Source: Candidatus Omnitrophota bacterium
GTDB taxonomy: Bacteria; Omnitrophota; Gorgyraeia; JAHJTE01
DNA: 64,000 nt
NCBI GenBank assembly: GCA_040753675.1
Contig: JBFMEB010000004.1
Span: 4,288 to 68,287 of the forward strand
Direction: 5' to 3'
Shown: positions 30,452 through 49,918 of the stretch, one piece after another
How positions within the stretch are numbered: position 1 is the first letter of the stretch
How the letters are laid out: each line of letters starts with the position of its first letter
Program-made: the position numbers and the translations under genes
The notes under the pieces: generated by a model
What the model saw: only the letters and a program-made list of their open reading frames with translations
Database searches by the model: none
What the model was told of the DNA's origin: nothing

Positions 30452-31024
30452 TTAATCGGATAATGCTGCCAGTGCTATTCTTGCTACCTGTTTTTCCAGA
30501 CCAGGAAAATCTAAGATTTCACCCTTTCTATCAATCTTAGCAAATAATAATTCTCCGCAATACTGTGTATTAATGACTTGAAAGAAAAGCCTGACGATTT
30601 GCTTTGCATTTTCGAAAAATTCATTTTTAGCCGCAGCTGCTATTAAAATCAAAAATCCTTTTTTTCTTTTTATATCAGTTTTTCCTTTTCTGATCTTTGC
30701 CAGCCAGAATGGCTGCATACGGTCTATAAGCATCTTGGCCTGGGCAGTAAGGCTGCCAAAATAAATGGGCGAACCAAAAACTATTGCGTCAGATTCAATT
30801 ATCTCTTTATAAATTGGTCTTAGGTCATCTTGTAAAATACAACATTCATCTCTATCGCAACCTCCACAGACCTGGCAAGGTTTAAAGTTCAGGTTATTTA
30901 TATCTATCTTGGTAACCCTAGCGCGACCTCCGATAGTCTGCCTGATTTTCTCTAAAACAATATCAGTATTGCCCCCAACTCTGGGGCTGGCATTTAGAAG
31001 TAAAATTAATTTTCCTTTATGCAT
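30452..31024 (-). CDS. Flavodoxin-like NAD(P)H-dependent FMN reductase / iron-sulfur flavoprotein family
   Basis: 190 aa; KLILLLNASPRVGGNT, a Cys cluster CQVCGGCDRDECC, and FGSPIYFGS. Confidence 0.7.
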   Translation of the reverse strand: MHKGKLILLLNASPRVGGNTDIVLEKIRQTIGGRARVTKIDINNLNFKPCQVCGGCDRDECCILQDDLRPIYKEIIESDAIVFGSPIYFGSLTAQAKMLIDRMQPFWLAKIRKGKTDIKRKKGFLILIAAAAKNEFFENAKQIVRLFFQVINTQYCGELLFAKIDRKGEILDFPGLEKQVARIALAALSD

Positions 31025-31038
31025 ATAATCGCGCCTTT

Positions 31039-35035: not shown

Positions 35036-35955
35036 ATCTCCAAATAAATATGCTTAGTAATCAAATCCCTGGGGGTAATATCAAAAGCAGGATAATATGC
35101 CTTTATCCCTTTCGGGGCAAGCCGAACCCCGTCAAAATTTAATAATTCCTTTTGCGGCCTAATCTCGATTTTAATATCTTTACCGGTTTTTGTTTTTGAG
35201 AAAGGAGGACATAAAACATAAAAGGGTATCTTAAAATGGTTGGCTAAAACCGCTATCTGATAAGTCCCGATTTTATTGGCAATGTCGCCATTCTGCGCTA
35301 AATGGTCTGCGCCAACAATAACCTTATCAATCTTACCCTCTGACATAACCTGGCCTATCATATTATCCGTAATTAAGGTAACCGGGAAATCCTCTCTTTT
35401 TAATTCCCAGGCGGTTAAGCGCGAACCCTGTAAATAAGGTCGAGTCTCCGGAACAAAGAAACTAACCTTTTTATTGTCTTTTCGGCAAAATTCTCCTATA
35501 AGAGGCATAAGCCCGCTGACATTGCAATAGGTCAATATCACATCATTATTTTTAATCAAAATACTTGCTTTCCTTGCCTGCTCTATGCGCTTACTTTTAA
35601 GCATTTCTAAAAATCCGAATATATTTTTTTCCAGATCAGCTCCTGATTTAACCCAGCCTAAAACTAAATCAGTTAGATATTTAAAAGACAATGTTGGCCG
35701 GCTCGTATTTATTGCCTTGGCAATATGCTCTAAATGCGAAAAACTCCTATCCTTAGCTAATTCTAAAATAAAAACATACATTACCAAAAGCACCTGGCCT
35801 ACTGCGCGCGTCTTCATCTCTTTTATAGCCTTAACTGCCTGTTTATAATCCTTTATTTTTATATAGGATAATTTAAATGGGAGGCTAGTTTCATCTAAGA
35901 CATATATAATATTACCCTTTAACTGAACTGGCCAAAAAAGCGGCGATAGTCTCAT
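35032..35955 (-). CDS. mtnA: S-methyl-5-thioribose-1-phosphate isomerase (eIF-2B alpha/beta/delta family)
   Basis: 307 aa; IF-2B family fold with VIVGADHLAQNGDIANKIGTYQIAVLANHFKIPFYV. Confidence 0.8.
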   Translation of the reverse strand: MRLSPLFWPVQLKGNIIYVLDETSLPFKLSYIKIKDYKQAVKAIKEMKTRAVGQVLLVMYVFILELAKDRSFSHLEHIAKAINTSRPTLSFKYLTDLVLGWVKSGADLEKNIFGFLEMLKSKRIEQARKASILIKNNDVILTYCNVSGLMPLIGEFCRKDNKKVSFFVPETRPYLQGSRLTAWELKREDFPVTLITDNMIGQVMSEGKIDKVIVGADHLAQNGDIANKIGTYQIAVLANHFKIPFYVLCPPFSKTKTGKDIKIEIRPQKELLNFDGVRLAPKGIKAYYPAFDITPRDLITKHIYLEI

Positions 35956-36701
35956 TTGCCCTCAAGTCTTTTTACAGTTTCTAAAGCAATTTCTATTAAT
36001 TTACTTTCCGCCATATAATAAAGCGGATTCATAAAGCCCATCTCTCCGGTAATCACATTATCGCTTACTGCCAAAATAGAGCCAGCTTTAATCTTGTAAA
36101 CTGCGGCAATAGTTAATAGACTTGATGATACCATATCTACGGATATTGCACCCATTTTTCGTTTTGCCTCAACTACCTCTCTGGTTTCTCGCAATAACGC
36201 ATCCGTTGTCCAAACAATGCCCCGATGGATATTCGTGCCTAAATCCTTTGCCACGTTAAAAAGTGTATCTGAAATTTTCTTATCTGCGGCTGTTTTGAAA
36301 CTATTATCAACATAATAAGGCGTAACCCCGTCTCCTCTTATAACCTCGTCAGCAATTACCAAATCGCCAATCTTTATATCTTCGCTCAATGACCCGCAAG
36401 TTCCTATGCGTATAATATTACTGATTTGCGCATTACACATGACTTCTGCTGTAATAGCTGTATCAGTAGAAAACCTTCCGCCATTCATTGCTGTGATTTT
36501 AATCCCCTGATATGAGCCGGTATGCATGGTATATTCCATAAAGGAAAAGTTTCTGACCGGATTTTCTAATTTTTTAATCAATACCTCTAATCTGTCTTTT
36601 GGCCCAGGAACAATTGCGTATTTACCAACATCCTGCGGCCGCAACTGCACCATATCAGTTAAATCTTTTCCAGTCAGATGAATATCCTTTTTCATCTCCA
36701 T
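35952..36701 (-). CDS. Nucleoside phosphorylase family 1 protein (candidate 5'-methylthioadenosine phosphorylase)
   Basis: 249 aa; PNP/UDP-1 fold (YAIVPGPKDR, IRIGTCGSL, DMVSSS). Assignment as MTA phosphorylase is by context, next to mtnA and the aldolase. Confidence 0.6.
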   Translation of the reverse strand: MEMKKDIHLTGKDLTDMVQLRPQDVGKYAIVPGPKDRLEVLIKKLENPVRNFSFMEYTMHTGSYQGIKITAMNGGRFSTDTAITAEVMCNAQISNIIRIGTCGSLSEDIKIGDLVIADEVIRGDGVTPYYVDNSFKTAADKKISDTLFNVAKDLGTNIHRGIVWTTDALLRETREVVEAKRKMGAISVDMVSSSLLTIAAVYKIKAGSILAVSDNVITGEMGFMNPLYYMAESKLIEIALETVKRLEGK

Positions 36702-37103
36702 TACTTTCTCCTTATAATTGTCTACTAATATTAAGCGGATTTAGCGGGTCCTGCCGAGCCTTGTTTTCGTAGCAACGCTACTCAAATCAAGTCTCGTCAC
36801 CCGCTAAATTAACCTTAATGAAACTGGCAATTTTCGAGCATTTTACAATTGACTTGGCAAGTTTTGAGCAAGACGTCAAAAATTCTTCTCTATTTTTACT
36901 TCCCCAAAGATGAAACTGGCAATTTTCGAGCGAATAGAGATTTTAGCCAAGGAAGCTTGAGCATTTCGGGAATCCCGTACTTTTGGATGGCGAGGATGTT
37001 TGAGTCCGTCCTGGCGAAAGCCGACGGACGAGTTCCGCAGCCACCGAAATGCGAAAGACCCTTGGCGTTAAAAAATCGAACTGAAGCGAGAAAATTGCCA
37101 GTT
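36702..37103. promoter_or_regulatory. 400-bp non-coding leader/spacer with candidate structured RNA and a 19-mer repeat (AAACTGGCAATTTTCGAGC x2 direct and x1 inverted)
   Basis: 11-bp stem ATTTAGCGGGT...ACCCGCTAAAT encloses GTAGCGTTGCTAC immediately upstream of the phosphorylase start. A GC-rich hairpin GTCCGTC..GACGGAC lies near 37000-37060. The track ORFs 36849-37124 (+) and 36896-37111 (-) overlap each other and are probably not coding. Confidence 0.4.
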
Positions 37104-38012
37104 TCATCCAAGCACCCTCTCTAAATTCCCTCCTAAAATATCTTCTTTATCTTCTTGTTTTATAGCCAAATCTTTGACTGCCTTAATTGAACCAATTATA
37201 TCCTTTTTTGCTGGCCAGTCGCTACCCCAAAGAAGATGTTTGGGTCCTAATAATTCTAAGGCGGAAAGGAAATTTGTCTTAGATATATCTCCGCTTGTAT
37301 CTACATAAATATTTTTTAAATAAGCAGTAGGGTTATCTTTCAAATCTTTTACGAAATTTATGCCTCTTAACATTTTATAGGTTGCGTCAAAACGCCCAGC
37401 AATATGGCAAGTAATTCCTCCAAAATAGGCAAATATAAATTTGACATCGCAATATTTACGCAAGATATCAGACATCAAAAGCTTTCCTATACAAATGGTG
37501 GTATCAAAGATATATTCAACTACCGGAGTAAGCAAGGGATCATTAACTCTTTCATAACCGATAGGATTAATTATCTGAGAGTGCACAAAAATTGGTATTT
37601 CTTGTTTCAGGGCAATGTCATATATAGGAATAAATGAATTATCATCCAAATATACGCCGTTATAGCTGCTAGCCAGACAGATTGCCTTAAATCCTAAGCC
37701 TTCTCTTGCGCGTTTTAATTCAACTATCATCTGCTCTCGGTTACCATCTGGTAAAACAGCAGCAGCAATGAATCTTTTAGGATAACGCTTAATAATCTTT
37801 GCTATATTATCATTATAAATATGGGCTAACTTCTCCTGCCCACCCAGTTTTAGATGCGCATCAGAAGTTGGATATGTTAACAGCGCCTTATCGATGCCTG
37901 CCTCATCCATCATCTTAAGATGGGCTTCTATATCTGACCAGGCCTTAGAAAAAAAGTGGGCATTTGCTACAATTTCTTCTGGCAACCAATGGCTATGGCT
38001 ATCAATAATCAT
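37104..38012 (-). CDS. Amidohydrolase-2 family metal-dependent hydrolase/decarboxylase
   Basis: 302 aa; N-terminal IIDSHSHW metal-binding HxH, a TIM barrel, and a C-terminal WGSDWP. Confidence 0.75.
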   Translation of the reverse strand: MIIDSHSHWLPEEIVANAHFFSKAWSDIEAHLKMMDEAGIDKALLTYPTSDAHLKLGGQEKLAHIYNDNIAKIIKRYPKRFIAAAVLPDGNREQMIVELKRAREGLGFKAICLASSYNGVYLDDNSFIPIYDIALKQEIPIFVHSQIINPIGYERVNDPLLTPVVEYIFDTTICIGKLLMSDILRKYCDVKFIFAYFGGITCHIAGRFDATYKMLRGINFVKDLKDNPTAYLKNIYVDTSGDISKTNFLSALELLGPKHLLWGSDWPAKKDIIGSIKAVKDLAIKQEDKEDILGGNLERVLG

Positions 38013-38404
38013 TTGTGGTCCGTGCTTTTTAGAATTCGCTCAATCATCTCTTTCTCATAAAGAGATTTTATTTCTTTTAAGCCTGCTCTTCCTAATACCT
38101 TAACTATGGCCTTTTCAATCGCCTTTAATTTAAATACTAGGAAACTATATTGCGGATGGAAAGCCTTATCCTCAAATTTTAAATTAAGCCCCTCTTTTTC
38201 CTTATTTTCGATATAAAGAGAAAACTCATCAATAAATTTACCTATTTCTTTTTTACTTCTGTGCCTTTTTAATTCTTTTAGCAAAAATTTATCAATCGAA
38301 AGTTGAGTAAATTTCCTCTCAATTCTGTCTAAGGATTCTTTAGTAGTCTTATACAACCAGATTAAATACCTTTTCTTTAAATCTTTTATATCTGCTTTTT
38401 CCAT
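38009..38404 (-). CDS. Hypothetical protein
   Basis: 131 aa, charged and helical. No motif recognised. Confidence 0.4.
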   Translation of the reverse strand: MEKADIKDLKKRYLIWLYKTTKESLDRIERKFTQLSIDKFLLKELKRHRSKKEIGKFIDEFSLYIENKEKEGLNLKFEDKAFHPQYSFLVFKLKAIEKAIVKVLGRAGLKEIKSLYEKEMIERILKSTDHK

Positions 38405-38407
38405 TTC

Positions 38408-38639
38408 AAATGAGCAGACAACTTATGGAAGCTTTAGCGACGTAAGTTGTAGACCTTCGGTCGTCTGCGAATTTGACCCAGCACTTATTTTACTGCCAGT
38501 CTTAGCATTAAAATTTTAAGTTTTATTAAAATAAAAACTTCCTTTTTATTACCCAGCTTTTTAGTAAAATAAGTGCTGGGTAAGTTCGGCCAGACAACTT
38601 ATGTCGTCCTTTATGATCCATAAGTTGTGGCCTCACTTA
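38408..38639. mobile_element. MITE-like repeated intergenic element, copy 3
   Basis: Termini AAATGAGCAGACAACTTATGGAAG ... CATAAGTTGTGGCCTCACTTA, with an internal long stem ACCCAGCACTTATTTTAC / GTAAAATAAGTGCTGGGT. It abuts the start codon of the 38009-38404 gene. Its TAA (within CACTTATT) is the stop codon of the SDR gene. Confidence 0.6.
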
Positions 38640-39413
38640 TTCCTTAGGATGGTCTTGTTTATAGGGTATTACTGGTTTTGTCCAAGGCGTCTGCTGGTTA
38701 ATTACGGCAATTTCCAAAGGGCAGACATTGGCCGGAACAGTTAAGGCAAATCTTACCGCATTCTCAATCGCTTCCGTAGTCATAAGGCGCGAGCTATCGG
38801 TAGTTATTTCTTGCAATTTCCCGGTAAGGTCTGTGTCGGTTACACCCGGCAATATCGAAGTTACTTTTATGCCGTGGTCGCGTAATTCCCAAAATAGCCC
38901 TTTAGAAAAAGCCCGTAAACCGACTTTCAAGGAACTATAGACAATGAAATTCCTTGGTAAGGGATCGCAAAGAGTAGAACCGGAAACCATATTAATAATT
39001 GCACCCTCTTTGTTTTTTATCATATCATTTATGACTAAACGGATAAGCCGAACATAACCCAAATAGTTTGTATGGCTGAGTTTTTCAAAATCTTCAAGGG
39101 GCTGTTTTTCAAATGGGTACTGGCTAGAGACTCCGGCGTTGTTTATCAAGATATCTATTGAATGAAATTTCTCTTTAGTTTTATTAACCAAATTCTGGAG
39201 GTCTTCTAATTTAGTTACATCGCAAGGAATAGTTAAAATCTCTACTTTGTATTTTTTCTTAATTTCATCTGCTGTTTCAATTAGAGGGCCTTCCTGACGC
39301 GCGGCAAGACTCAAATTAATGCCTAAACTTGCCACGGTATTAGCTATGGCCTTTCCTATTCCCCGACTTGCACCGGTAATGATTGCGGTTTTTCCTTTTA
39401 GATTAACACTCAT
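38637..39413 (-). CDS. SDR family oxidoreductase (ketoreductase-like)
   Basis: 258 aa; TGASRGIGKAIA, NNAG, and the S...YxxxK catalytic spacing. Confidence 0.85.
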   Translation of the reverse strand: MSVNLKGKTAIITGASRGIGKAIANTVASLGINLSLAARQEGPLIETADEIKKKYKVEILTIPCDVTKLEDLQNLVNKTKEKFHSIDILINNAGVSSQYPFEKQPLEDFEKLSHTNYLGYVRLIRLVINDMIKNKEGAIINMVSGSTLCDPLPRNFIVYSSLKVGLRAFSKGLFWELRDHGIKVTSILPGVTDTDLTGKLQEITTDSSRLMTTEAIENAVRFALTVPANVCPLEIAVINQQTPWTKPVIPYKQDHPKE

Positions 39414-39428
39414 AATTCCTCCGATTTT

Positions 39429-40550
39429 TCAATTATTGCCTAATAATGGTTTTGTTAAGGATAGCAAACATACCAGGCATATACCAAAAATAACGAAACC
39501 AAAATTAAAATTCCTCTGCATCAATAAGCCGCCTAAGCCTACTCCGATGCTGCCGGAGAGGAAACGTATACTGCTGTTTAGACTTGCCGCTTCATTTAAG
39601 AATTCTTTTGGCAAATCAGTAAGCAAAGTCGAGATACCAGCGTGATTAAAAGTCCAACCCAGACCCCAGACAATCATAATCAGCGCTAAAACAATAATAG
39701 GCCATTTAGCGGTTAGTAAAAATATGCTGATAGTCATTAAGATAAGGCCTAAATTTACAATTTTTAGCCGTCCAACAAAATCAGAAAACCAACCACCCAA
39801 TACTTCTCCAAATATTCCACTTAAGCTTACCGAGGTAATAAGCATGCTAATTGACAATTGGCTAAAGCTGTATCTAACTGAAAAATAAACTCCTAACCAT
39901 TGCTGCAAGCCATGATAAAACAAACTAATTAAAAATATGTAGGCGAAGATAAAGATTATTTTCTTGGCTTTAAAGAGTGTTAAATAATTAAACTTAAAAC
40001 CAATGGCAATTTCTTTAAAACTTGGGAGATAAAAATAAATATGTATCCAGAGAATAAAACCCAATATCGCCGGGATTAAAAAAATTAGCCGCCAAGGTAT
40101 AAAACCAGTTAAAAATAGTCCTACGAGTGAAGCCACAAATGTACTTGAAAAAAAAGTGCCCACTAGCTTACCCCTATTAGTATCTGAAGCATAATGGGAA
40201 ATCAATATAAGAACAAGAGGTATAACCGAGGCGCCAAATAAGCCCATAAAGAATCTGGCAATAAAGAGCATATTTAGATCTTGAGAAAGAGCAGCTATGA
40301 GATTTGCTAAGGAAAACAGGAAAAAACAAACTAATTCTATTTTTTTTGCATCAATTACTCTAACCAATGGACCGTAAAAAAGCGCAGCCAGGCCATAAGG
40401 AAGCATGTAAAGCCAAATTATATTGCCGGCAATAAACTGTGAAGTTTTGAATTCCTGAGAAATCGATGGAATCAAAGCTGAACAGGCGGCAACATTAAAA
40501 GAAAGAAGCGCACCCTCTAAACAAAGTATTATAAATGTGGTTTTCTTCAC
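39429..40550 (-). CDS. MFS transporter
   Basis: 373 aa with about 12 predicted TM helices. Confidence 0.75.
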   Translation of the reverse strand: MKKTTFIILCLEGALLSFNVAACSALIPSISQEFKTSQFIAGNIIWLYMLPYGLAALFYGPLVRVIDAKKIELVCFFLFSLANLIAALSQDLNMLFIARFFMGLFGASVIPLVLILISHYASDTNRGKLVGTFFSSTFVASLVGLFLTGFIPWRLIFLIPAILGFILWIHIYFYLPSFKEIAIGFKFNYLTLFKAKKIIFIFAYIFLISLFYHGLQQWLGVYFSVRYSFSQLSISMLITSVSLSGIFGEVLGGWFSDFVGRLKIVNLGLILMTISIFLLTAKWPIIVLALIMIVWGLGWTFNHAGISTLLTDLPKEFLNEAASLNSSIRFLSGSIGVGLGGLLMQRNFNFGFVIFGICLVCLLSLTKPLLGNN

Positions 40551-40987
40551 TCGCCGGCTTCTTTTTCGATAACGGATTTAAAAATCTTTAAATTTTCCTG
40601 GGAATGCTTATTTATAAAACCCTCTATTTGGTTGTCATTGAATTTTGCTTTTTCATCCATCTGGAAATGCTGTATCCAAGTCATTTCTACGCCTTCCGGT
40701 TTAGGCGTATAAAGCCAGATAATCTTCATATATTTAAAAGGAAATTTTGGCTCTTCTCTTTCTGAATAAGTAAAATATTTTTCTTTAAAAAGCAGCCGCC
40801 AAGACTGCCAGGATTTATCCTCATCATCAGTCAGACGAAAGGTTATCTTGTTCCCTTCTTTTTTTAAAACCTCGGATTTTTTATATTCTCCACCAAATAA
40901 TTCTGTCCAGCGCGGTATATCATTAGATATATCAAAAACTTTATTGTAATCTGCATTGATGAGAATTGAATTACAGGTATGTCCCAT
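40547..40987 (-). CDS. SRPBCC (Bet v1-like polyketide cyclase/aromatase-type) domain protein
   Basis: 146 aa; size and beta-grip/helix pattern consistent with the SRPBCC superfamily. The domain call is by inference. Confidence 0.55.
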   Translation of the reverse strand: MGHTCNSILINADYNKVFDISNDIPRWTELFGGEYKKSEVLKKEGNKITFRLTDDEDKSWQSWRLLFKEKYFTYSEREEPKFPFKYMKIIWLYTPKPEGVEMTWIQHFQMDEKAKFNDNQIEGFINKHSQENLKIFKSVIEKEAGE

Positions 40988-41008: not shown

Positions 41009-41809
41009 TTATAAGATAGCGACCACCCTCGCCCAGCCAGCACCGGCATTTCTAATCTTTACCGGAAAGCAACTTACCTTAAATCCAAAGGCTACAGGTA
41101 TTTTATCCAGATTAGCCAATCTTTCAATATGCGCATATTCGCGCCTGCGTCCTAAAAAATGCGATGGCCAGAGAACAGATTTATTTTTGGTTTTTAGAAA
41201 TTCCGTAAACATATCCGGGCAAGGTCGATCAAGGCCCAAGGTATCAATACCTATCATTTTAATGCCAAAATCCAGAAGATATTCGATTGCTTCTGGTAAG
41301 ACGCCAACGTATTTATTCACATATTCAGGTTTTCCTATAAATTTATCAGCACCTGTATTAAATAAAATAATGTCTAGGGGCTTTAATTTATAATTAATTT
41401 TATTTAGCGCGTTAACCACATCTTTATGGTTAATAATCTCAGGATATTTTTTATACTTAAAATCCAAAACTACTCCATCGCAATAGCACCACTCTAACGG
41501 CAAATCATTTATATATTTAGAGGGTTTGCCTTCGGATTTGCTTCCATAGTGATATGGCGCATCAACATGGGTGCCCATATGTACTGAAGAATTTACAATC
41601 TCTAAAGAAAGGAGTTCCTCATCAGGAACATCACCCGGCGCTATTAATCTCTCGCCTCTTTTAAACTTTGCCTCAGATACCCTATCTTTACTCATCAGCA
41701 CCCAATTTAGATGTTCAACTCCCTGGCTGTGGCTTATCCGCTGGATATTCGCAGCATGAGTCTCATCTAAAGTATCGTCAATCGGCAGACTCAAGTCAAT
41801 TATTTGCAT
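41009..41809 (-). CDS. Cyclase family protein (kynurenine formamidase-like fold)
   Basis: 266 aa; hallmark HMGTHVDAPYH motif. Confidence 0.75.
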   Translation of the reverse strand: MQIIDLSLPIDDTLDETHAANIQRISHSQGVEHLNWVLMSKDRVSEAKFKRGERLIAPGDVPDEELLSLEIVNSSVHMGTHVDAPYHYGSKSEGKPSKYINDLPLEWCYCDGVVLDFKYKKYPEIINHKDVVNALNKINYKLKPLDIILFNTGADKFIGKPEYVNKYVGVLPEAIEYLLDFGIKMIGIDTLGLDRPCPDMFTEFLKTKNKSVLWPSHFLGRRREYAHIERLANLDKIPVAFGFKVSCFPVKIRNAGAGWARVVAIL

Positions 41810-42045
41810 TATGCACCTAATTTAAGATTAATAATCTTCTCGATATCATTAACACTCGAAAATTTTGTAACTTCTTTTGCGCTCAATTTAATATTAAATG
41901 CCTTCTCCAAAGCAATTACTGCCTCTACCATTTCCGTAGAATCAACGCCTAACCCAGACTCAAGGGCTATATCATCTTTTAATTCCTCAGGTCTAATCCT
42001 TAATAGTGTAATTAGGGTATCTTTTATTTTTGCTTTAGTATCCAT
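41809..42045 (-). CDS. Acyl carrier protein
   Basis: 78 aa; LGVDSTEMVE with a Ser at the phosphopantetheine attachment position. Confidence 0.85.
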   Translation of the reverse strand: MDTKAKIKDTLITLLRIRPEELKDDIALESGLGVDSTEMVEAVIALEKAFNIKLSAKEVTKFSSVNDIEKIINLKLGA

Positions 42046-42064: not shown

Positions 42065-43540
42065 TCAGACGTGCACTTCGCCTTTTGTCGCGCCTGCCTC
42101 CCATTTGCCTACACCAGCCATAACATCCTGAAAACAAAGTTTGGCCAATATATCAAAATTACTTTCCATAATTCTGTTTATCCGGCCTGGCTTAGAATAA
42201 AATTCCCGCATGCACCAAGAACCTAACCTTCCTAATTCTTCGATAGATAAATGGTCAGTAGGAATAACCGGATGCAAAAAATCCCATTGGCTAAAATCTA
42301 TTTTCTTGGGATTAATCCAGTTTTTCTTCAGGCCTATTCTCCACATGGGAGAATTCGGTGCCGGTGTAACATAGCCAATCCAAAGGATGTCCGGGTCAAC
42401 CTCATCAGTAAACTCATATCTCTGTTTTATAATCTGTTCATTATCATAGTCGAAACCCATCATAATATCAGCAACAACTGCAATATCGTTTTTGCACAAA
42501 ATCTCAATTGTCTTTTTAATCTGGTCAATTGTGATACCCTTGGCGATTTTCTTTAATTCTTCCGGAGTGGTAACTTCTATTCCAAACACGCCGATAAAAA
42601 GCCCCGTCTCTTTCATAAGAGGCAATATGGACTCGCAATTAACCCAATCTATTGCCCTGCCCAAAGACACCCATTTAACCGGTATGCCCTTCTCTTTTTT
42701 TAATTCACAGAATTTCTTTACTCTCGCCGGGTCAACATTGAAATTATCATCCTGGATAACTACGACTTTAACTCCGTATTTTTTATGCAAAAGCTCTAGC
42801 TCTTCTATCACCCTTTCTGGCGACTTTGCCCGCCATTTAAGAAAGTCGGAAGGTGAACGCGGGTCATATTGGTCCCATTCATAGCAAAAAGTGCAGGCAG
42901 AAGGGCATCCCCGCGATGTTACCATATCTACAAATGGTTTCCAATGAGTATGGCCAACGTATTTATCCATAGGAAACAGATCATAGGCTGGCAAGGGCAG
43001 CTTATCCAGCTCTTCTAATAATGGCTTGTGCGGGCCCATAACAATCTTGCCGTTGATTCGGGAAGTAACTCCCGCTACATCTTTTAAATTTTCACTTTTA
43101 TCAATTGCATTAATCAAATCATAAAACGATTCTTCTTCACCCATAACCACAAAATCAACAGCTGGATTTTCTTCTAATGTAGGAACTGGCATTGCAGAAT
43201 ACCAGAGCCCGCCGAATATAATTTTAACCTTAGGCAGTACTTGTTTTATTCTGGGAGCTATTTCGTTAAAATGCCGCAAGACGCCGTAACCGCCGTAAGA
43301 ATGAAGCTGCTCGCCTAAAACAACTATATCCGGATTTTTCGCCTTTACTTTAGCAACCATTTCGTCCATAGGTATTTCCAACGCCTTGCCGTCTATAACC
43401 TCCACATCTTCATAGCCCTTCTCCCGTACAAAGCTCGCCCAGTGGGCGTACAATTGATTTGGAGCAACATGTTTTCCATGCGTTGCCCAAGAACCAACCT
43501 TAGGCATAACGAACAATATCTTCATTTTAACCTCCCTCAA
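42065..43540 (-). CDS. B12-binding-domain radical SAM enzyme (class B radical SAM)
   Basis: 491 aa; N-terminal cobalamin-binding Rossmann region, then CPSACTFC (CxxxCxxC). Confidence 0.85.
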   Translation of the reverse strand: MREVKMKILFVMPKVGSWATHGKHVAPNQLYAHWASFVREKGYEDVEVIDGKALEIPMDEMVAKVKAKNPDIVVLGEQLHSYGGYGVLRHFNEIAPRIKQVLPKVKIIFGGLWYSAMPVPTLEENPAVDFVVMGEEESFYDLINAIDKSENLKDVAGVTSRINGKIVMGPHKPLLEELDKLPLPAYDLFPMDKYVGHTHWKPFVDMVTSRGCPSACTFCYEWDQYDPRSPSDFLKWRAKSPERVIEELELLHKKYGVKVVVIQDDNFNVDPARVKKFCELKKEKGIPVKWVSLGRAIDWVNCESILPLMKETGLFIGVFGIEVTTPEELKKIAKGITIDQIKKTIEILCKNDIAVVADIMMGFDYDNEQIIKQRYEFTDEVDPDILWIGYVTPAPNSPMWRIGLKKNWINPKKIDFSQWDFLHPVIPTDHLSIEELGRLGSWCMREFYSKPGRINRIMESNFDILAKLCFQDVMAGVGKWEAGATKGEVHV

Positions 43541-43658
43541 TCGCTAAAACGCAAAATAAGTTATTACAATATCTAAAATAACACCGCTAAATCGCAAAAA
43601 TTTATTTTGCGTTCTCTGCTGACTAAATTATATTTCTTGTAGTTTTGCGTTTTTGCGG
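43541..43658. repeat. Palindromic repeat spacer (CGCTAAAACGCAAAAT x2 direct, then ATTTTGCGTT / GTTTTGCGTTTTTGCGG inverted)
   Basis: Read directly between the rSAM start and the KS-beta stop. Confidence 0.45.
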
Positions 43659-44888
43659 TCATGCTTTCTCCACTACCAATACTGAATTAATCCCGCCTCT
43701 GCCACGAGAAATTATCAACGCCTTATTTATCTTATAATCAATTGCTTCTCTCTTGATATAATTTAGACCTGCTTGAACCGGTTCTGCCAAATTTATAGTA
43801 GGCGCCACTACACTATGTTCCATAGAAAGAATGGTAATTATCAAATCAACAGCACCTGATGCGCCAAGCAGATTGCCAAACATTGATTTAGGGCAACTTA
43901 TAGGTATATCTTTAACTCTTTTGCCAAAAACATTTTTTATTGCTTCTAATTCTGAGTTATCCCAAATGTCTAATGCCAAACCATCCAAGCTTATATAATC
44001 TATTTTATCAGGTTCAACTTTCGCATCTATTAGTGCCATTTTAATAGACCTTGCCAATTCTTTACCGTCTGGGGATGGGTTAATCCTATCAGCTCCATCA
44101 CAGGTAGTGCCATAACCGCTGATAAAACCCCAAATATTGGCGCCTCTCGCTTTTGCACGGTTAATAGACTCCATAACAACAATGCCTGCGCCCTCTCCTA
44201 TAACACATCCGTCGCGCTTATTATCAAAAGGCCTGTATGCGCTTTGCGGGTTAAGATTATTTTTAGAAAGCGCGCCGTAACTATTGCAACATAAAAGCGC
44301 GTAAGGAGTAACCGGGGCCTCCATGCCGCCGGCTAAAATCATATTAAGTTTATTCTTGCTCAAAACCTTACGGGCATAGCCAATTGCCATTAAAGAACTT
44401 GCCCGGTCAGCAACAACTGTCTTACTAAATCCTTTTATACCATAATAAATAGAAACCTGGCCTTGCGGCGCAGCCGGAAACCAGGCCGAGGCCATATAAG
44501 GAGAAACGCCATTGCGGCCCTCAAGATATAAATCGCGCAACTCTGTTTCTGCATACATCCACCCGCCTAAGGCATTACCTAAGAAAATTCCTATGAGATT
44601 AGGATCTTCATTTTTAATGTCAATACCTGCATCTTCTAAGGCAAGCTCTGAGGCAATAAGAGCCATATGAGAAAATGCGTCTATTTTTTTTAGAAGGCGT
44701 TCTGAGATATTAGAATATTTTTCCAAATCGTCAATCTGGCCGGCTATATGCGAAGGGTATTTACTTGACTCGAAACGGGTAATTTCTTTTATAAAAGACC
44801 TTCCCGCTTTTATATTTGCCCAAAACTGGCGCTTACCAATACCAGAAGGCGCAACCACGCCAATGCCTGTAACAGCGATTTTCTTCAT
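43659..44888 (-). CDS. Ketosynthase-like protein lacking the catalytic triad (KS-beta / chain-length-factor-like)
   Basis: 409 aa thiolase fold. Active-site positions read ADRASS (Arg in place of the Cys of TACxxG), GYGTTCDGAD (Tyr in place of the His of NAHGTST), and KSMFGNLLGASGA (Asn in place of the His of KSxxGH). Confidence 0.75.
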   Translation of the reverse strand: MKKIAVTGIGVVAPSGIGKRQFWANIKAGRSFIKEITRFESSKYPSHIAGQIDDLEKYSNISERLLKKIDAFSHMALIASELALEDAGIDIKNEDPNLIGIFLGNALGGWMYAETELRDLYLEGRNGVSPYMASAWFPAAPQGQVSIYYGIKGFSKTVVADRASSLMAIGYARKVLSKNKLNMILAGGMEAPVTPYALLCCNSYGALSKNNLNPQSAYRPFDNKRDGCVIGEGAGIVVMESINRAKARGANIWGFISGYGTTCDGADRINPSPDGKELARSIKMALIDAKVEPDKIDYISLDGLALDIWDNSELEAIKNVFGKRVKDIPISCPKSMFGNLLGASGAVDLIITILSMEHSVVAPTINLAEPVQAGLNYIKREAIDYKINKALIISRGRGGINSVLVVEKA

Positions 44889-45040
44889 ATTAAATGGTTA
44901 AACTCTAAACTCAAAACTCTAAATCCTAAATAAACCCAAAAGCAAAAATAAAAATGTCCAAAATAGCATTTTTGAGTTTTATGTTTTAGGTTTTGGATTT
45001 GTTTAGAGTTTAGGATTTGTGATTTAGGATTTAATTTCAT
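44889..45040. repeat. Heptamer-periodic palindromic array (AAACTCT/AAACTCA/AAATCCT direct, then AGGATTT/TAGGTTT inverted)
   Basis: Read directly between the KS-alpha and KS-beta genes. Confidence 0.5.
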
Positions 45041-46312
45041 TCATCCACCGTATCTCCTCATCACCAATGATGAATGTATTCCCGAAAATCCACTTGAGGT
45101 TTTGAGAATTGTATTTACTTTCTTCTCTCTCGCCACATTTGGAATATAATCTAAATCGCAAAGAGGGTCTTTTTCTTCCTGATTTATTGTGGGAGGCAGA
45201 ATATTTTCCTTAAAAATCATAGAACATACTGTCAACTCTACTGCATTTGCCGCAGCCAAAGGATGGCCAATCATAGATTTAAGCGAGCTAATAGGCAATT
45301 TATAAGCATAATCGCCAAAAACCGTCTTGTAAGCATTTGTTTCAAATATATCATTCATGCGAGTAGAAGAACCATGGGCATTAATATAATCTATATCTTT
45401 AGGCCTGAACCTCGCATCTTCCAAAGCCAAGCGTATGCAATTTGTCATTGCTGTCCCGTCTTGCGGAAGATCGGTCATATGAAAGGCATTACAACTTGTG
45501 CCAAAACCAAGAACCTCGCAATAAATACGAGCTGAACGCTTTAATGCATGATTTAATTCCTCTAGCACTAATATGCCTGCGCCCTCAGATAAGACAAAAC
45601 CATCGCGCTTATTATCAAAAGGCCGGCTTGCTGCAGCTGGATTATCATTACGAACAGATAAAACATTAACCACATCAAACGCGCCAAAGGTAATTGGTGT
45701 AATTGGCGCTTCAGCTGCGCCGCTAATCATAACATCTTGTTCTCCATCCTGAATTGTCTCAAAAGCAAAACCAATAGAATCTGTACCAGCAGTGCAACCA
45801 GTAGACAATGTATTGCATATCCCTTTTAAACCATATTTGGCGCTAATCTCGATAGACGGAGTATTAAACATTGCTGCATCGTATAAATCAGGCCTTGCTT
45901 TCCCTGGATCGATGGCTTTCTTACCGTCTTCCGTCACTAATGCAAATTCCTCTTCCATATATTTTGTTCCGCAAATAGCATTAGCAAGGCAGACGCCGAT
46001 GCGCTGATGGTCTTCTTTAGAAAAGTCTAAGCCGCTATCCTTTATTGCCATCTCACCTGCCAGGACAGCAAACTGCACATATCTATCCATACGCATAACA
46101 TCATCGTGACTAAGGCCTAATTTAAACGGATCAAAATCCCTGACCTCTGCGGCAATTTTGGTATTAAATACAGAAACGTCAAAGCCATCAACTAATTCAA
46201 TCCCTGATTTACCTTTAATCATCGCGTTATAAACATTTTCCTTGCCTATGCCGTTTGGGGATATGACGCCGATACCAGTAATTACCACTCTTCGTTTTTT
46301 CATATTAATCAA
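45041..46312 (-). CDS. Beta-ketoacyl synthase (KS-alpha; FabF/type II PKS KS family) with intact Cys-His-His triad
   Basis: 423 aa; catalytic Cys in CNTLSTGCTAGTDSIGFA, NAHGSSTRMND, and KSMIGHPLAAA. Confidence 0.85.
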   Translation of the reverse strand: MINMKKRRVVITGIGVISPNGIGKENVYNAMIKGKSGIELVDGFDVSVFNTKIAAEVRDFDPFKLGLSHDDVMRMDRYVQFAVLAGEMAIKDSGLDFSKEDHQRIGVCLANAICGTKYMEEEFALVTEDGKKAIDPGKARPDLYDAAMFNTPSIEISAKYGLKGICNTLSTGCTAGTDSIGFAFETIQDGEQDVMISGAAEAPITPITFGAFDVVNVLSVRNDNPAAASRPFDNKRDGFVLSEGAGILVLEELNHALKRSARIYCEVLGFGTSCNAFHMTDLPQDGTAMTNCIRLALEDARFRPKDIDYINAHGSSTRMNDIFETNAYKTVFGDYAYKLPISSLKSMIGHPLAAANAVELTVCSMIFKENILPPTINQEEKDPLCDLDYIPNVAREKKVNTILKTSSGFSGIHSSLVMRRYGG

Positions 46313-46899
46313 TCTTCTACCCTTGTTACTTTAAAAACTATATTCCCTCCGTCTGGACAGGTAACTGTATCGATTGAGTCAGGGTCACTCATAAAGAAAA
46401 ATTTTGCGCCGAAATTAAGCGCAAAAAGCGCCGGGAACGCTGTATGGAATGCAGCTCCGCAAAAGTTAGGTATACACTTGAGGCCTTGAGTTTCCCATTT
46501 ATCTCCTACCTGGTAACCAAAGGTGCATTTGCCTTTTGCTTTAACCACCTCAATAAGCATCTTCTTAGGTTTGGGACCCTTGAAATTTTCATCTTTGGGA
46601 ATAAATTCGACTTTGCCATTTTTATCCAAAATTTCTGCCTTAAACTCTAATTTTCCACCGTCAGGGCAAGTAACCAATAAAGAACGCTGATTATCCCGAA
46701 AGGGGAATTTTGCGCCAAAACTTAAGGCATATATAACCGGAAAAAGAGCATGGGCGAGTCCTAAGCAAAAATGTTTTGGAGGATGAGTAAAATCTTCCAA
46801 AATTAACTCATCGCCTTTCTTATATCCGTGATAACAATGACCAGCAACTTCGTTTACAGTAAGTTTTAACTTTGGAAATGGTGAATTAATCTCGCTCAT
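46309..46899 (-). CDS. Hypothetical protein made of two tandem ~95-aa Cys/His-containing repeats
   Basis: 196 aa. Repeat 1 (..CYHGYKKGDEL...HFCLGLAHALFPVIYALSFGAKFPF....VTCPDGGKLEFK) aligns with repeat 2 (..CTFGYQVGDKW...NFCGAAFHTAFPALFALNFGAKFFF....VTCPDGGNIVFK). Confidence 0.5.
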   Translation of the reverse strand: MSEINSPFPKLKLTVNEVAGHCYHGYKKGDELILEDFTHPPKHFCLGLAHALFPVIYALSFGAKFPFRDNQRSLLVTCPDGGKLEFKAEILDKNGKVEFIPKDENFKGPKPKKMLIEVVKAKGKCTFGYQVGDKWETQGLKCIPNFCGAAFHTAFPALFALNFGAKFFFMSDPDSIDTVTCPDGGNIVFKVTRVED

Positions 46900-46900
46900 A

Positions 46901-47905
46901 TTAATTAAATAACTCCTTTGTGTTATTAATCAATTCTTCTTTAGTAAAAAATTTATTTTTTCGTTCAACTTCATGAACCATATCAACTAATTTCTTATTT
47001 AAGAATGCATTAATATTATTTTCCTCTGCAATTCTTACAAATTCACCATTTATATAATCTATTTCTGAAAGCCTGCCCCGTTTAATGCTCTGCAATATTG
47101 AGCCATACAATGGTTCCTTGCTTAAATTAGCCATAATAGAAGAAAATATCTTGGCTGCTTCTAGATTAGAGAGAGAAGTTAATTTAGTCAATCTTTCTAA
47201 CGGAAAATCAGGCAATGAAACTAAATTTATGCCGGCTTTATTGATAACTTTAAGCCCTTCTTTCCATATTGCAATACTTATGCGGCTAATCTCAATATCA
47301 GAAAAGGCCTCTTGCATACTCACGCCTAATATTGCGCTTATACAGTTATTTGCATTTACAAACATTTTCAAATACTTCATTCCTTTTATGTTATCAGAAA
47401 CAATTACCGGAAAAATTTTATTTAGGATTCTACTAATTTCTGTTACTATTTCGTCATTTTTATTAAAAGTCCTGCCGATTATCCAACTACCTTCAAAATT
47501 ATGCACTACCTTAGCCGGCTCTAAATACGTAGAGCCAAACATAACAATACTTGAGATAATATTATCTTTGGAGATATATTTTGCAACTATTGTTTCTGCC
47601 TGAATGCCGTTCTGGGTTGTCAATATAAGCGTATCTTTAATCAGATTTATATTTTCTTTTAATGCTGTCTCTATATCCTGTGTCTTAGTTGCCAAAATTA
47701 TTAAATCAGGCCTGTGGTTTAATTTTTCATAAGCCTCTATTCCTATTTTAAAATCTCCCTTTACTCCTGAGATCTCTAAGCCCTTTTCTTTTATTGCCTT
47801 AACTGAACTCTTATGGCCGACTAAAGATATCTCTTCGCCCTTAGATTTTAAATATCCAGCTACAAGACAACCAATTGCTCCAGCTCCAATTACTGCTATT
47901 TTCAT
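46901..47905 (-). CDS. Ketopantoate reductase (ApbA/PanE) family NAD(P)-dependent oxidoreductase
   Basis: 334 aa; MKIAVIGAGAIGCLVAGYL Rossmann start and ApbA-family length. Confidence 0.75.
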   Translation of the reverse strand: MKIAVIGAGAIGCLVAGYLKSKGEEISLVGHKSSVKAIKEKGLEISGVKGDFKIGIEAYEKLNHRPDLIILATKTQDIETALKENINLIKDTLILTTQNGIQAETIVAKYISKDNIISSIVMFGSTYLEPAKVVHNFEGSWIIGRTFNKNDEIVTEISRILNKIFPVIVSDNIKGMKYLKMFVNANNCISAILGVSMQEAFSDIEISRISIAIWKEGLKVINKAGINLVSLPDFPLERLTKLTSLSNLEAAKIFSSIMANLSKEPLYGSILQSIKRGRLSEIDYINGEFVRIAEENNINAFLNKKLVDMVHEVERKNKFFTKEELINNTKELFN

Positions 47906-47908
47906 ATT

Positions 47909-48187
47909 AAATGAGCAGATAATTTATGGAACGTAAGTGACATAAATTATAGCCCCGCCCTTTTATTAATCCATATTTAGACGAACCCAGCCCAAAAGGG
48001 CGGGGCGTCTGCGAATTTAACCCAGCACTTATTTTACTAAAAAGCTGGGTAATAAAAATTAAGATTTTATTCAAAGAAAATTTATTTTATTTCAAATTAA
48101 AGCCTGGCAATAAAATAAGTGCTGGGTAAGTTCAGCCATACAACTTATGTCGTTCTTACGAACTTCCATAAGTTGTGGCTTCACTTA
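47909..48187. mobile_element. MITE-like repeated intergenic element, copy 2
   Basis: Termini AAATGAGCAGATAATTTATGGAACG ... TTCCATAAGTTGTGGCTTCACTTA, with internal CCCCGCCC..GGGCGGGG hairpin and the ACCCAGCACTTATTTTAC / GTAAAATAAGTGCTGGGT long stem. Its TGA (within CTTCACTT) is the stop codon of the 48181-48438 gene. Confidence 0.6.
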
Positions 48188-48438
48188 GGAAAGCCATACT
48201 TTTTATAATCAAAACCTGTCTGCTCTAAGAGCCGAACCATCATGCTATAAAATGGGGACGGCACGTCTGAAAAAAATGCGCTTATAACATCCAATTCTTC
48301 AACTAAAGAAGAATTCCTAAGCCTCGCATTTTCTTCTGCCCTTTTAGTAACAACCTGCTCAGTAATGTGCCGATGGAAAACAGGAATCTTTGAAATCATC
48401 AGTTTGAGCTTTTCTTGAGTTTTGCTTTCCCAGTCCAT
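48181..48438 (-). CDS. Small hypothetical protein
   Basis: 85 aa. No motif recognised with confidence. Confidence 0.4.
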   Translation of the reverse strand: MDWESKTQEKLKLMISKIPVFHRHITEQVVTKRAEENARLRNSSLVEELDVISAFFSDVPSPFYSMMVRLLEQTGFDYKKYGFPK

Positions 48439-48453
48439 AGGCCTATCCTCTTT

Positions 48454-48481
48454 AAAATATAGTAAAATTTTACTATATTTT
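48454..48481. promoter_or_regulatory. 28-bp perfect palindrome AAAATATAGTAAAATTTTACTATATTTT (candidate PadR operator)
   Basis: Read directly. It lies between the padR stop and the first gene of the downstream cluster. Confidence 0.45.
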
Positions 48482-48490
48482 CCTATTTAG

Positions 48491-48994
48491 TCAAGACAAA
48501 AACTCAAGCAAAGACTCTATCTCTGATTCTAATAATTTGAGGTTGTGCCGAAGGATATTTATAAGGTTGGATGGTTTTGGTTTTGTAGTCTTGATTAAAT
48601 CTAATAGTTGGCCTTTAAGCCGCCTTAACAGGTTTAACCTTGTATTAAGCCGCCTCTTAGCCAGGCGTGGACTAAGGTAGGAAATAAAATAAAGACCGAG
48701 GTCAATGCTAAAAAATGGCCGTTCTATTCTAATAAGACTATCCTGAAGAAGCCTTTTAAACCTAACTTCTCCTCTAGGGGTGAGGCTATATACGTATTTT
48801 TCAGGCCGTTTACCTGCCTGAGTGGTGCTTTTCTTAATAAGGCCTTGTCTTTCTAATTGCCTAAGCGGATAGTAAATCGAGGTAGAATCAACTTTGAAAA
48901 ATGTGTTAATTTCTTCTTTAATTAAGCGCTTTATTTCATAGCCATGTTTAGGGCCGCCTTTAAGCAGGCCTAAGAAAAGAAGTTCATTTTCCAT
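48491..48994 (-). CDS. PadR family transcriptional regulator
   Basis: 167 aa; N-terminal winged helix LLFLGLLKGGPKHGYEIKRLIKEEINTFFKVDSTSIYYPLRQLERQGLI. Confidence 0.85.
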   Translation of the reverse strand: MENELLFLGLLKGGPKHGYEIKRLIKEEINTFFKVDSTSIYYPLRQLERQGLIKKSTTQAGKRPEKYVYSLTPRGEVRFKRLLQDSLIRIERPFFSIDLGLYFISYLSPRLAKRRLNTRLNLLRRLKGQLLDLIKTTKPKPSNLINILRHNLKLLESEIESLLEFLS

Positions 48995-49011: not shown

Positions 49012-49082
49012 AGCGGGCAACGGGGATCGAACCCGTGTAGGTGGCTTGGAAGGCCACTGCACTACCGCTGTGCTATGCCCGC
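49012..49082 (-). tRNA. tRNA-Gly (anticodon TCC)
   Basis: Manual fold: acceptor GCGGGCA/TGCCCGC, D-arm GCAC..GTGC, anticodon stem GTGGC/GCCAC with loop CTTCCAA, T-arm ACGGG-TTCGATC-CCCGT, discriminator T. Confidence 0.85.
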
Positions 49083-49088
49083 ATGGCC

Positions 49089-49334
49089 CTACAGAAGATG
49101 TCTCTTTAAAAATGCTCTTCCTGAACCAGTCTTAAAATATCTCTCTAGATTAACTGCCAATCGTAGGTTTTTAATACCGATATAAGAAATTAATTCGAAT
49201 GGTCTATAGTTAGCGGTAGATAATTTACTATTTTCTGAGTTGTGTTCTTCTAATCTTCTCTCTAAATTATTGGTATAACCAGTATAGGTATAACTCTGCT
49301 TCTTTATACTTTTAAGGAAATAAACATACCACAT
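49089..49334 (-). CDS. GIY-YIG nuclease family protein
   Basis: 81 aa; WYVYFLKS...YTGYTNNLERRLEEHN (GIY-YIG motif). Confidence 0.75.
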   Translation of the reverse strand: MWYVYFLKSIKKQSYTYTGYTNNLERRLEEHNSENSKLSTANYRPFELISYIGIKNLRLAVNLERYFKTGSGRAFLKRHLL

Positions 49335-49394
49335 TAGTTATCTCTTAGTGTCCGCCTTCGTCTTCCAAAGAGAATTTAATCACTTGACTACGGC

Positions 49395-49671
49395 GGACAT
49401 TCGCCGAAGCCAAACGCAAAGCATTTGGCGAAGGCGAATGGACAGGAGAGGATTTGAACTTACCATAGGGGCTCTCTGCCCCTCCATGGCGTCGTCACCC
49501 CAAGGCTGACTCCTGTCACCCCGTAGTGTAACTAAAGTTAGCTATTCTTGAGGGGAAAATCATCTTTTCCCCTCAAGCTCCTCTTTTGTTCAAATCCTTA
49601 CTGGCGTTAAATTCTTCGAAGCTTAAACATGAAGCGAACGCAGTGAAGCGAAATATTTAAGCGTAGTAGAG
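49395..49671. mobile_element. Small inserted element (212-bp core at 49460-49671) flanked by a duplicated tRNA-Tyr 3' end
   Basis: TGGACAGGAGAGGATTTGAAC occurs at 49439-49459 and again as the real tRNA-Tyr 3' end at 49672-49692. A diverged duplicate of the tRNA-downstream flank lies at 49395-49438. The core carries hairpins AGGGGCTCTGCCCCT and GGGGAAAATCATCTTTTCCCC, also found at 58206-58430. Confidence 0.5.
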
Positions 49672-49753
49672 TGGACAGGAGAGGATTTGAACCTCTGAAG
49701 CTATGCGCAACAGATTTACAGTCTGCCCCCTTTGGCCACTTGGGTACCTGTCC
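49672..49753 (-). tRNA. tRNA-Tyr (anticodon GTA), long variable arm
   Basis: Manual fold: acceptor GGACAGG/CCTGTCC, anticodon stem GCAGA/TCTGT with loop CTGTAAA, long variable arm, T-arm AGAGG-TTCAAAT-CCTCT, discriminator A. Confidence 0.8.
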
Positions 49754-49842
49754 GTTAAAAAAATTATTGCTAAATTGCTATCTGCTAAATTGCTTTTTAT
49801 ATGACAATTTAACAATGGAACAATATAGCAATTTATATTTTA

Positions 49843-49918
49843 TGGAGCCGACGAGAGGAATTGAACCCCCGACCCAGGGTTTACAAAACCCTTGCTCTAC
49901 CAACTGAGCTACGTCGGC
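49843..49918 (-). tRNA. tRNA-Thr (anticodon TGT), CCA encoded
   Basis: Manual fold: acceptor GCCGACG/CGTCGGC, D-arm GCTC..GAGC, anticodon stem AGGGT/ACCCT with loop TTTGTAA, T-arm CGGGG-GTTCAAT-TCCTC, 3' TCCA. Confidence 0.8.

Follow-up and report, generated by a model that had tools for sequence, protein, structure and literature searches.

What does a ketosynthase-like protein contribute to a biosynthetic pathway once all three of its catalytic residues have been replaced? The question is raised by an open reading frame (ORF) at 43659-44888, on the minus strand of a 64,000-nucleotide stretch (the window) of contig JBFMEB010000004.1 from a Candidatus Omnitrophota bacterium. Its 409-residue product matches both the N-terminal and the C-terminal ketoacyl-synthase domains of Pfam (PF00109, E 5e-45, and PF02801, E 1e-26), and its gene follows that of a ketosynthase (KS-alpha; 45041-46312, minus strand) in which Cys173, His313, His350 and Lys345 are intact. 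A first-pass annotation had described the protein as a thiolase-fold partner unable to perform Claisen condensation, with the catalytic Cys, His and His replaced by Arg, Tyr and Asn, and had suggested from the Arg that priming or chain-length control might proceed by a different mechanism. The analysis reported here identifies the ORF as the KS-beta subunit, or chain-length factor (CLF), that partners KS-alpha in a type II aromatic polyketide synthase (PKS). We further consider it probable that this CLF is non-catalytic, that its Arg is a structural residue paired with an Asp, that KS-alpha primes the synthase and that the product is aromatic.

To assign the triad, residue-by-residue HMMER alignments to the FabF structures 3o04 and 1j3n were combined with a MAFFT alignment to the neighbouring KS-alpha. 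Both place Arg162 (codon 44403-44405), within the sequence 'TVVAD-R-ASS', at the position of the catalytic Cys. Segment searches against solved structures gave the same register: Gln161 of the actinorhodin CLF ('LVAE-Q-AGG', 1tqy_B) falls exactly on Arg162, and the Asp of AntE ('TFSTS-D-VAG', 6smo_C), the CLF of the Photorhabdus anthraquinone PKS, aligns with it as well. Together with the preceding residue it forms an Asp161-Arg162 'DR' pair (44403-44408, minus strand, as are all cluster coordinates below). At the second catalytic His, FabF 'KSMTG-H' aligns with 'KSMFG-N', that is with Asn339 (43872-43874), a position occupied by Arg in the actinorhodin CLF. The first-pass annotation was therefore correct for these two residues, and neither Cys nor Gln is present at the active-site position, but its motif for the first His, a Tyr in the block 'GYGTTC', was mis-registered. 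That block (residues 258-263; 44100-44117) pairs with the 'GYGATG' of FabF 'GYGATGDAYH' and lies approximately 40 residues upstream of the first His position, at which FabF 'YINA-H-GTS' aligns with 'YISL-D-GLA' and the residue is Asp302 (43983-43985). The triad, in the order Cys/His/His, is thus R/D/N rather than R/Y/N; the actinorhodin CLF, in which the residues aligned with the two His lie in 'FA-D-GAG' and 'TTTG-R-LYS', is Q/D/R. The KS lysine is still present as Lys334 (43887-43889). Lacking the Cys and both His, and encoded beside an intact KS-alpha, the protein is indeed a thiolase-fold partner that should be unable to perform Claisen condensation.

Further features mark this partner as a CLF: a Cys-less fold of the ketoacyl-synthase II (KAS-II)/thiolase type, an intact KS-alpha gene just upstream, genes for an acyl carrier protein (ACP) and aromatic cyclases in the same cluster, and CLF sequence signatures. 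One such signature, 'AWFPAA' (44472-44483), is identical in AntE, reads 'AWFYA' in the actinorhodin CLF and is absent from FabF; over the N-terminal 80 residues the match to AntE reaches E 2e-22, with a common 'GGW...AWFPAA.QGQ' block. Ungapped HMMER alignments also recover the gate helix, in which Trp110, Ala113 and Leu117 (44538-44561) are equivalent to Phe109/Thr112/Phe116 of the actinorhodin CLF and Trp107/Ile110/Val114 of AntE. These gate positions reportedly control chain length in the actinorhodin CLF, as work by Tang in 2003 and by Keatinge-Clay in 2004 is said to have found. The CLF feature that is missing is Gln at the Cys position, which the first-pass annotation had taken known CLFs to retain. 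Asp stands there in AntE, a CLF that has been both characterised and crystallised, and most of the sampled non-actinobacterial CLFs also lack the Gln, which therefore defines an actinobacterial subgroup and not the CLF family. With R/D/N at the triad, the protein likewise does not match the KS-Q decarboxylases, which have Gln at the Cys position together with both His. A housekeeping FabF is ruled out by the missing Cys-His-His triad, by the PKS context and by family scores below the cut-offs (374.5 against 493.75 for TIGR03150 and 358.4 against 387 for NF005589).

An AlphaFold2 (AF2) model of the CLF monomer (predicted local distance difference test, pLDDT, 88.5) has a full KAS-II fold, with template-modelling (TM) scores of 0.96 to FabF and 0.93 to the actinorhodin CLF, and predicted disorder is confined to residues 101-140. 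In this model strand 155-158 is followed by helix 161-177, and Arg162, at the start of the helix, takes the place of the KS nucleophile (local pLDDT approximately 95). Because FabF, the actinorhodin KS and the actinorhodin CLF all score 0.93-0.96 against this model in the PDB fold comparison, the fold cannot tell a CLF from a KS. Whole-protein searches of PDB sequences ranked FabF above the CLFs, and the alignments to the actinorhodin CLF and AntE emerged from segment searches and not from these whole-protein searches. The C-terminal gating loop also departs from FabF: in place of 'GFGG' (NSFGFGGHN), residues 394-398 (43695-43706) read 'SRGRG', a loop that is invariant in Omnitrophota and common in the clade of Arg-type CLFs described below.

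Conservation was assessed in at least 120 homologues of 79-100% identity, the homologue lists being biased towards Omnitrophota; the closest match is a 100% identical protein in a Candidatus Omnitrophota metagenome-assembled genome (MAG). Across 120 homologues no variation was seen at Asp161, Arg162, Asp302, Lys334 or Asn339; in all, 152 of 409 columns are invariant in this set, and they are concentrated in the N-terminal half. The Arg is never replaced at 86 homologous loci, where it is encoded by CGG (37), AGG (28), CGC (11), CGT (5), AGA (3) or CGA (2), and this use of six synonymous codons indicates purifying selection on the residue itself. A scan of GTDB (one genome per species), with the 'AWFPAA' signature as the pattern, recovered 491 genomes with a relative; the best 80 of these 491, at 78-82% identity, were all labelled Omnitrophota (or mislabelled Planctomycetales). 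At least 80 Omnitrophota species share the PKS cluster in syntenic form, and over 83 loci the median identity of the CLF was 79.9%, compared with 81.7% for KS-alpha. As conserved as its catalytically intact neighbour, the CLF thus appears to be under selection and not decaying.

The Arg had been regarded as unusual, and triad states were compared across 124 CLF-like sequences, collected as the nearest 50%-identity representatives and by a profile search (the representative search was dominated by multi-KS type I PKSs, with approximately 27 of 150 listed proteins useful). Arg proved to be the majority state among the sampled non-actinobacterial CLF-like proteins. R/D/N is found in Omnitrophota (58-85% identity) and in Deltaproteobacteria MAGs, R/E/H in Clostridium and Leptolyngbya, R/D/H in Sorangium, Archangium and Polyangia, and R/H/H in Ktedonobacter racemifer; a K/D/H state also occurs. 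The remaining states are S/N/N and one C/N/N, both from Nitrospirota-type MAGs at approximately 52% identity to the window CLF, I/A/N, M/N/N and a single A/D/R resembling the actinorhodin CLF. Proteins with Arg at the Cys position come from at least five phyla, and the W/A/L gate residues, invariant in Omnitrophota, are common across the Arg-type clade. On this sampling of sequences, Arg is what a large non-actinobacterial CLF branch normally has, a family trait and no oddity. A literature search found no statement on Arg at the CLF Gln position. Candidatus Omnitrophica is listed among the phyla with KS-CLF pairs in a 2023 catalogue of type II PKSs (PMC10132072), the text supplements of which do not mention Omnitrophica.

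Two side observations concern the same sequence sample. The C/N/N protein (P0312) retains a Cys without either His and belongs to a group from Nitrospirota-labelled MAGs (P0305-P0326). Natural KS-CLF fusions of approximately 800-870 residues were also present (P0122, P0144, P0159, P0163, P0164, P0198, P0217, P0241 and P0255); their N-terminal KS has Cys/His/His, and their C-terminal CLF-like half is varied at the Cys position, with Thr, Arg (P0144), Gly, Ala, Trp or Cys (P0164). The occurrence of such fusions is in keeping with the identification of the ORF as a CLF.

What, then, does the Arg do? The relationship between positions 162 and 302 was examined in 23 clusters formed at 60% identity. 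A basic residue (Arg/Lys) at 162 was combined with an acidic residue (Asp/Glu) at 302 in 15 of the 23, both charges were missing in four, and the acidic residue stood alone in one, where Arg was found at the second-His position like in the actinorhodin CLF. A single group of more than 60% identity includes R/D/N, S/N/N and C/N/N variants, and since R/D/N and S/N/N occur together there, both charges appear to have been lost together. In KAS II structures the side chains of the triad are in mutual contact, and by analogy Arg162 and Asp302 most likely form a buried salt bridge that plugs the defunct pocket. The loss of both His, the covariation, the S/N/N relatives and the AF2 placement at the nucleophile position suggest that Arg162 is structural rather than catalytic, and the 'DR...D/E' charge pair would constitute a previously unremarked signature of non-actinobacterial CLFs.

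According to the mechanism that we favour, the CLF would pair with the adjacent KS-alpha, as judged by homology to the actinorhodin KS/CLF and AntDE. Its conserved N-terminal half would provide the surface for dimerization and the end at which the polyketide tunnel is closed. Trp110, Ala113 and Leu117 would close the tunnel, such that chain length is probably set by the canonical gate helix; the presence and invariance of these gate positions lend no support to the different chain-length mechanism that had been suggested. Arg162 would pair with Asp302, and possibly also with Asp161, filling and stabilizing the vestigial pocket, with the positive charge on the Cys position here and on the second-His position in the actinorhodin CLF instead. 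For priming, KS-alpha would most likely decarboxylate malonyl-ACP to provide an acetyl starter. No gene for a ketosynthase III (KSIII), an acyltransferase or a CoA ligase was found between the PadR and Amidohydro_2 genes at the two ends of the cluster, either in the window or in the three Omnitrophota loci examined, which makes priming by KS-alpha the simplest reading and speaks against a different priming mechanism. So do two exceptions to the Gln rule: a closely related cluster has a Ser/Asn/Asn CLF, and the ant minimal PKS (AntDEF) is thought to produce an acetyl-primed octaketide with a CLF that has Asp at the Gln position and lacks the hallmark and gatekeeper residues (Cummings 2019, PMC6638757; S2 Fig legend for the Asp). 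The poly-beta-ketone would then be folded by a TcmN-type aromatase/cyclase (ARO/CYC) and a PF04199 cyclase, and tailored by a short-chain dehydrogenase/reductase (SDR), a B12-binding radical S-adenosylmethionine (SAM) enzyme and an Amidohydro_2 enzyme under anoxic conditions.

Several observations weigh against parts of this mechanism. The 23 clusters are a small sample drawn from Omnitrophota-biased top matches, three of them carry the basic residue at 162 alone (R/H/H in Ktedonobacter, R/A/N and R/N/H), and the association between the two charges (Fisher p 0.017) is not corrected for phylogeny. The Arg162-Asp302 contact is itself extrapolated from how close together the triad residues are known to lie in KS enzymes. 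The absolute invariance of Arg162, Lys334 and 'SRGRG' in Omnitrophota also fits ligand binding. An AMP-binding ligase gene (31039-32556) lies approximately 5 kb downstream of the cluster and could supply a non-acetate starter.

The alternative that best survives, although we judge it unlikely, is that Arg162 is functional: in a pocket that is still accessible, it would bind the carboxylate group of malonyl-ACP, or that of some other acidic starter or intermediate, allowing initiation or chain-length sensing of a kind different from that of the Gln-type 'chain initiation factor'. This would account for the invariance of Arg162, Asp161, Lys334 and 'SRGRG' in the 120 Omnitrophota homologues, for the purifying selection that appears to hold the residue, for the recurrence of Arg in at least five phyla and for a C-terminal half that is still FabF-like and full length. 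However, both His required for decarboxylation in KS and KS-Q enzymes have been lost, and the covariation of the Arg with an acidic residue at an adjacent position of the triad is what a charge pair would produce. Ser, Cys, Ile or Met takes the place of the Arg in close relatives from a related cluster, and AntE, with Asp, supports acetyl priming with neither Gln nor Arg. A broader version, which seems to us slightly less likely again, holds that the 'Asp-Arg' proteins are an ancient and distinct CLF class in which Arg, Lys334 and 'SRGRG' bind a carboxylate, giving the 'dead' subunit a part in initiation or chain-length sensing, and that the Omnitrophota cluster makes a near-core, anaerobically tailored aromatic compound (e.g. 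a redox-active polyphenol or quinone) and not an antibiotic of sporadic occurrence.

Less probable still is that the two proteins, as a pair descended from FabF, serve to make a lipid-type or highly reducing product (ladderane-like, polyene or fatty-acyl), the radical SAM enzyme acting on an acyl chain. The higher scores of the window CLF against FabF structures than against the actinorhodin CLF would fit such a pair, as would the weak match of the radical SAM enzyme to TIGR04072 ('lipid biosynthesis B12-binding/radical SAM protein'), the assignment of many non-actinobacterial CLFs to type II fatty acid synthases by NaPDoS2 (PMC10132072) and the 'ladderane' biosynthetic gene cluster calls in Omnitrophota MAGs (PMC9902471). 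Yet the window cluster contains neither a dehydratase nor an enoyl reductase gene, every related cluster examined encodes a TcmN/WhiE-type ARO/CYC and a PF04199 cyclase, and five components are common to a Clostridium type II PKS. Moreover, the best solved relatives of KS-alpha are the actinorhodin KS, followed by AntD, both ahead of any FabF. A degenerating KS paralogue or pseudogene with no remaining role, for which the loss of the entire triad could be cited, is ruled out for practical purposes by identity of approximately 80% in at least 80 species, equal to that of the active KS-alpha, by synteny and intact full length everywhere examined, and by the invariant interface region.

A CLF with a putatively paired Arg and Asp can be set beside systems that are better known. 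The actinorhodin CLF (ActI-ORF2, 1TQY chain B) is likewise a KAS-II-fold partner of a KS-alpha, with the 'AWF' block, an Asp at the first His ('FADG' against 'SLDG'), a gate helix that aligns without gaps and, of its three vestigial triad residues, one that is acidic and one that is basic; it differs in having Gln161 instead of Arg162, Arg instead of Asn at the second His and F/T/F instead of W/A/L at the gate, and is approximately 34% identical. AntE (6SMO chain C) is also non-actinobacterial and without Gln, and among solved structures it matches the N-terminal interface region best, with near-identical 'GN.(F/L)GGW' and 'AWFPAA.QGQ' blocks, whereas it carries Asp rather than Arg and, at 371 residues, has a divergent C-terminal third in contrast to the complete 409-residue FabF-like fold of the window CLF. 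FabF/KAS II shares the fold (TM 0.96), 36-38% identity and Lys334, but has Cys/His/His and the 'GFGG' gating loop where the window CLF, encoded in a PKS cluster, has 'GRGG'.

Two further comparisons concern CLFs that have the Arg. The CLF of Clostridium beijerinckii and C. puniceum, strict anaerobes, is 46% identical and has the same 'DR' motif, but keeps the second His and has Glu in place of Asp at the first (R/E/H). Its cluster shares the KS, CLF, PF04199 cyclase, SRPBCC cyclase, Amidohydro_2 and ACP genes (protein identities between the window and C. beijerinckii: KS 47%, CLF 46%, cyclase 51%, SRPBCC 45%, Amidohydro_2 33%) and lacks the B12-radical-SAM, TIGR04076 and PanE genes of the window cluster. 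As the literature names C. beijerinckii and C. puniceum as the two producers of clostrubin, the protein is probably ClrB of the clostrubin PKS, an assignment made from organism names and cluster type and not by accession match. The CLF of the chloroflexotan Ktedonobacter racemifer (KrKSCLF) has Arg at the Cys position and the W/A/L gate; unlike the window CLF it keeps both His (R/H/H), and it is 38% identical. It has been expressed in E. coli, in a paper that is silent on the Arg (bioRxiv 10.1101/2020.05.18.102780).

In the textbook view the CLF Gln is a hallmark linked to decarboxylative priming, but a large non-actinobacterial branch, which takes in producers of known compounds and CLFs used in engineering, has Arg instead. 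Type II PKSs as a whole, then, cannot depend on this Gln. Genome mining with actinobacterial CLF motifs tends to overlook Arg-type CLFs or to call them FabF, and the Arg motif offers a simple clade marker for choosing KS/CLF pairs compatible with E. coli. With protein identity of approximately 80% maintained over at least 80 species, the type II PKS cluster of this uncultured and largely anaerobic phylum is also a good target for heterologous expression, and it adds tailoring genes of an anaerobe type, for the B12-radical-SAM enzyme, together with the TIGR04076 protein. Non-Gln CLFs (AntE) and Omnitrophica KS-CLF pairs were already known; the putative charge-pair signature and the widely conserved Omnitrophota cluster are of modest interest.

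The cluster is read on the minus strand, beginning with a PadR-family regulator (48491-48994), an 85-residue conserved protein encoded by the first operon gene (48181-48438), homologues of which weakly match DUF2621, and a syntenic PanE/ApbA-family NAD(P)H reductase assigned by Pfam and NCBIfam (46901-47905). These are followed by a 196-residue tandem TIGR04076 protein (NCBIfam; 46309-46899), KS-alpha and the CLF, and then by the B12-binding radical SAM enzyme (42065-43540; approximately 83% conserved), whose best NCBIfam matches, BchE and HpnJ, are far below their cut-offs. Next are the ACP (41809-42045), assigned by Pfam with a DS(36) phosphopantetheine site, the PF04199 cyclase (41009-41809), which is the one 51% identical to its counterpart in the C. 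beijerinckii cluster, and a monodomain TcmN/WhiE-type ARO/CYC of the SRPBCC family (40547-40987; Pfam, with matches to PDB 2rez and 3tvr at E approximately 1e-21). A major facilitator superfamily (MFS) transporter (39429-40550), which roughly half of the related loci encode, and the SDR/ketoreductase (38637-39413; approximately 84% conserved) precede a 131-residue protein and the Amidohydro_2 enzyme (37104-38404), with which the synteny of the cluster ends. The Clostridium and Deltaproteobacteria MAG clusters contain an Amidohydro_2 gene as well; to judge by its family, the enzyme may be a decarboxylase.

The same gene order is found in other Omnitrophota and, with variations, in a Deltaproteobacteria MAG (CLF 59% identical) and a Nitrospirota-type MAG, and the order KS-alpha then CLF is kept in the Omnitrophota, Deltaproteobacteria MAG, Clostridium, Nitrospirota-type and Leptolyngbya loci. 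The Arg-type CLF of Leptolyngbya sits in a conventional aromatic PKS cluster. The S/N/N CLF P0315, at locus L087, lies in the order PanE, two ORFs, KS, CLF, ACP, cyclase and SRPBCC; the two ORFs are small (95 and 89 residues) and unannotated, and occupy the place of the tandem TIGR04076 gene of the window. Three Cys ('CPDGG' motif) and one His are invariant in each TIGR04076 repeat, and the protein is approximately 84% conserved. An AF2 model built from close homologues (pLDDT 73) gave no significant PDB fold match, and the literature search returned nothing relevant on the family. The end of its gene overlaps the start of KS-alpha by 4 nt, which may allow translational coupling. Between KS-alpha and the CLF is a 152-nt spacer (44889-45040) containing a long imperfect hairpin (-33 kcal/mol, z -3.8), which has no second copy in the window. 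The two genes abut in the Omnitrophota locus L001, and the spacer therefore looks like an insertion specific to the window genome.

Aldehyde:ferredoxin oxidoreductase genes were observed in the related clusters L085 and L087; the stretches of note in these loci are 3366-4832 in L085, and 2151-3593 and 4335-6236 in L087. Together with the radical SAM enzyme they suggest that the aromatic polyketide is tailored independently of oxygen. L087 also encodes a U32 peptidase-family protein, and no radical SAM gene was found in the stretch of it that was read. Directly downstream of the window cluster (30452-36701, minus strand) are genes for a PNP_UDP_1 phosphorylase, an IF-2B/MtnA-like isomerase, a class II aldolase-SCP2 fusion, an aldehyde dehydrogenase, the AMP-binding ligase and an FMN reductase. 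The first three of these genes, for the phosphorylase, the isomerase and the aldolase, are likewise found after the cluster in the Omnitrophota loci L001-L003 and in the Deltaproteobacteria MAG with the 59% identical CLF (L085, 18447-21242). The trio resembles the 5′-deoxyadenosine/methylthioadenosine (MTA) 'DHAP (dihydroxyacetone phosphate) shunt' and presumably salvages the by-product of the radical SAM reaction; the AMP-binding ligase could alternatively activate a starter unit.

Several repeats lie between the genes. A perfect 28-bp palindrome, AAAATATAGTAAAATTTTACTATATTTT (48454-48481), separates the PadR gene from the first biosynthetic gene and is a candidate PadR operator. Inverted repeats were also noted between the CLF and radical SAM genes (43548-43613, 23-nt arms) and between the genes for the 131-residue protein and the SDR (38476-38581, 52-nt arms), and downstream of Amidohydro_2 there are perfect 19-nt arms 162 nt apart (36909-37108). 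The upstream boundary of the cluster is a group of tRNA-Gly, tRNA-Tyr and tRNA-Thr genes (49012-49918). The neighbours on this side vary among Omnitrophota, with AccA in L001 and type II secretion genes in L003, and in the window an 81-residue ORF (49089-49334), putatively GIY-YIG-like as judged by eye, lies between tRNA-Gly and tRNA-Tyr.

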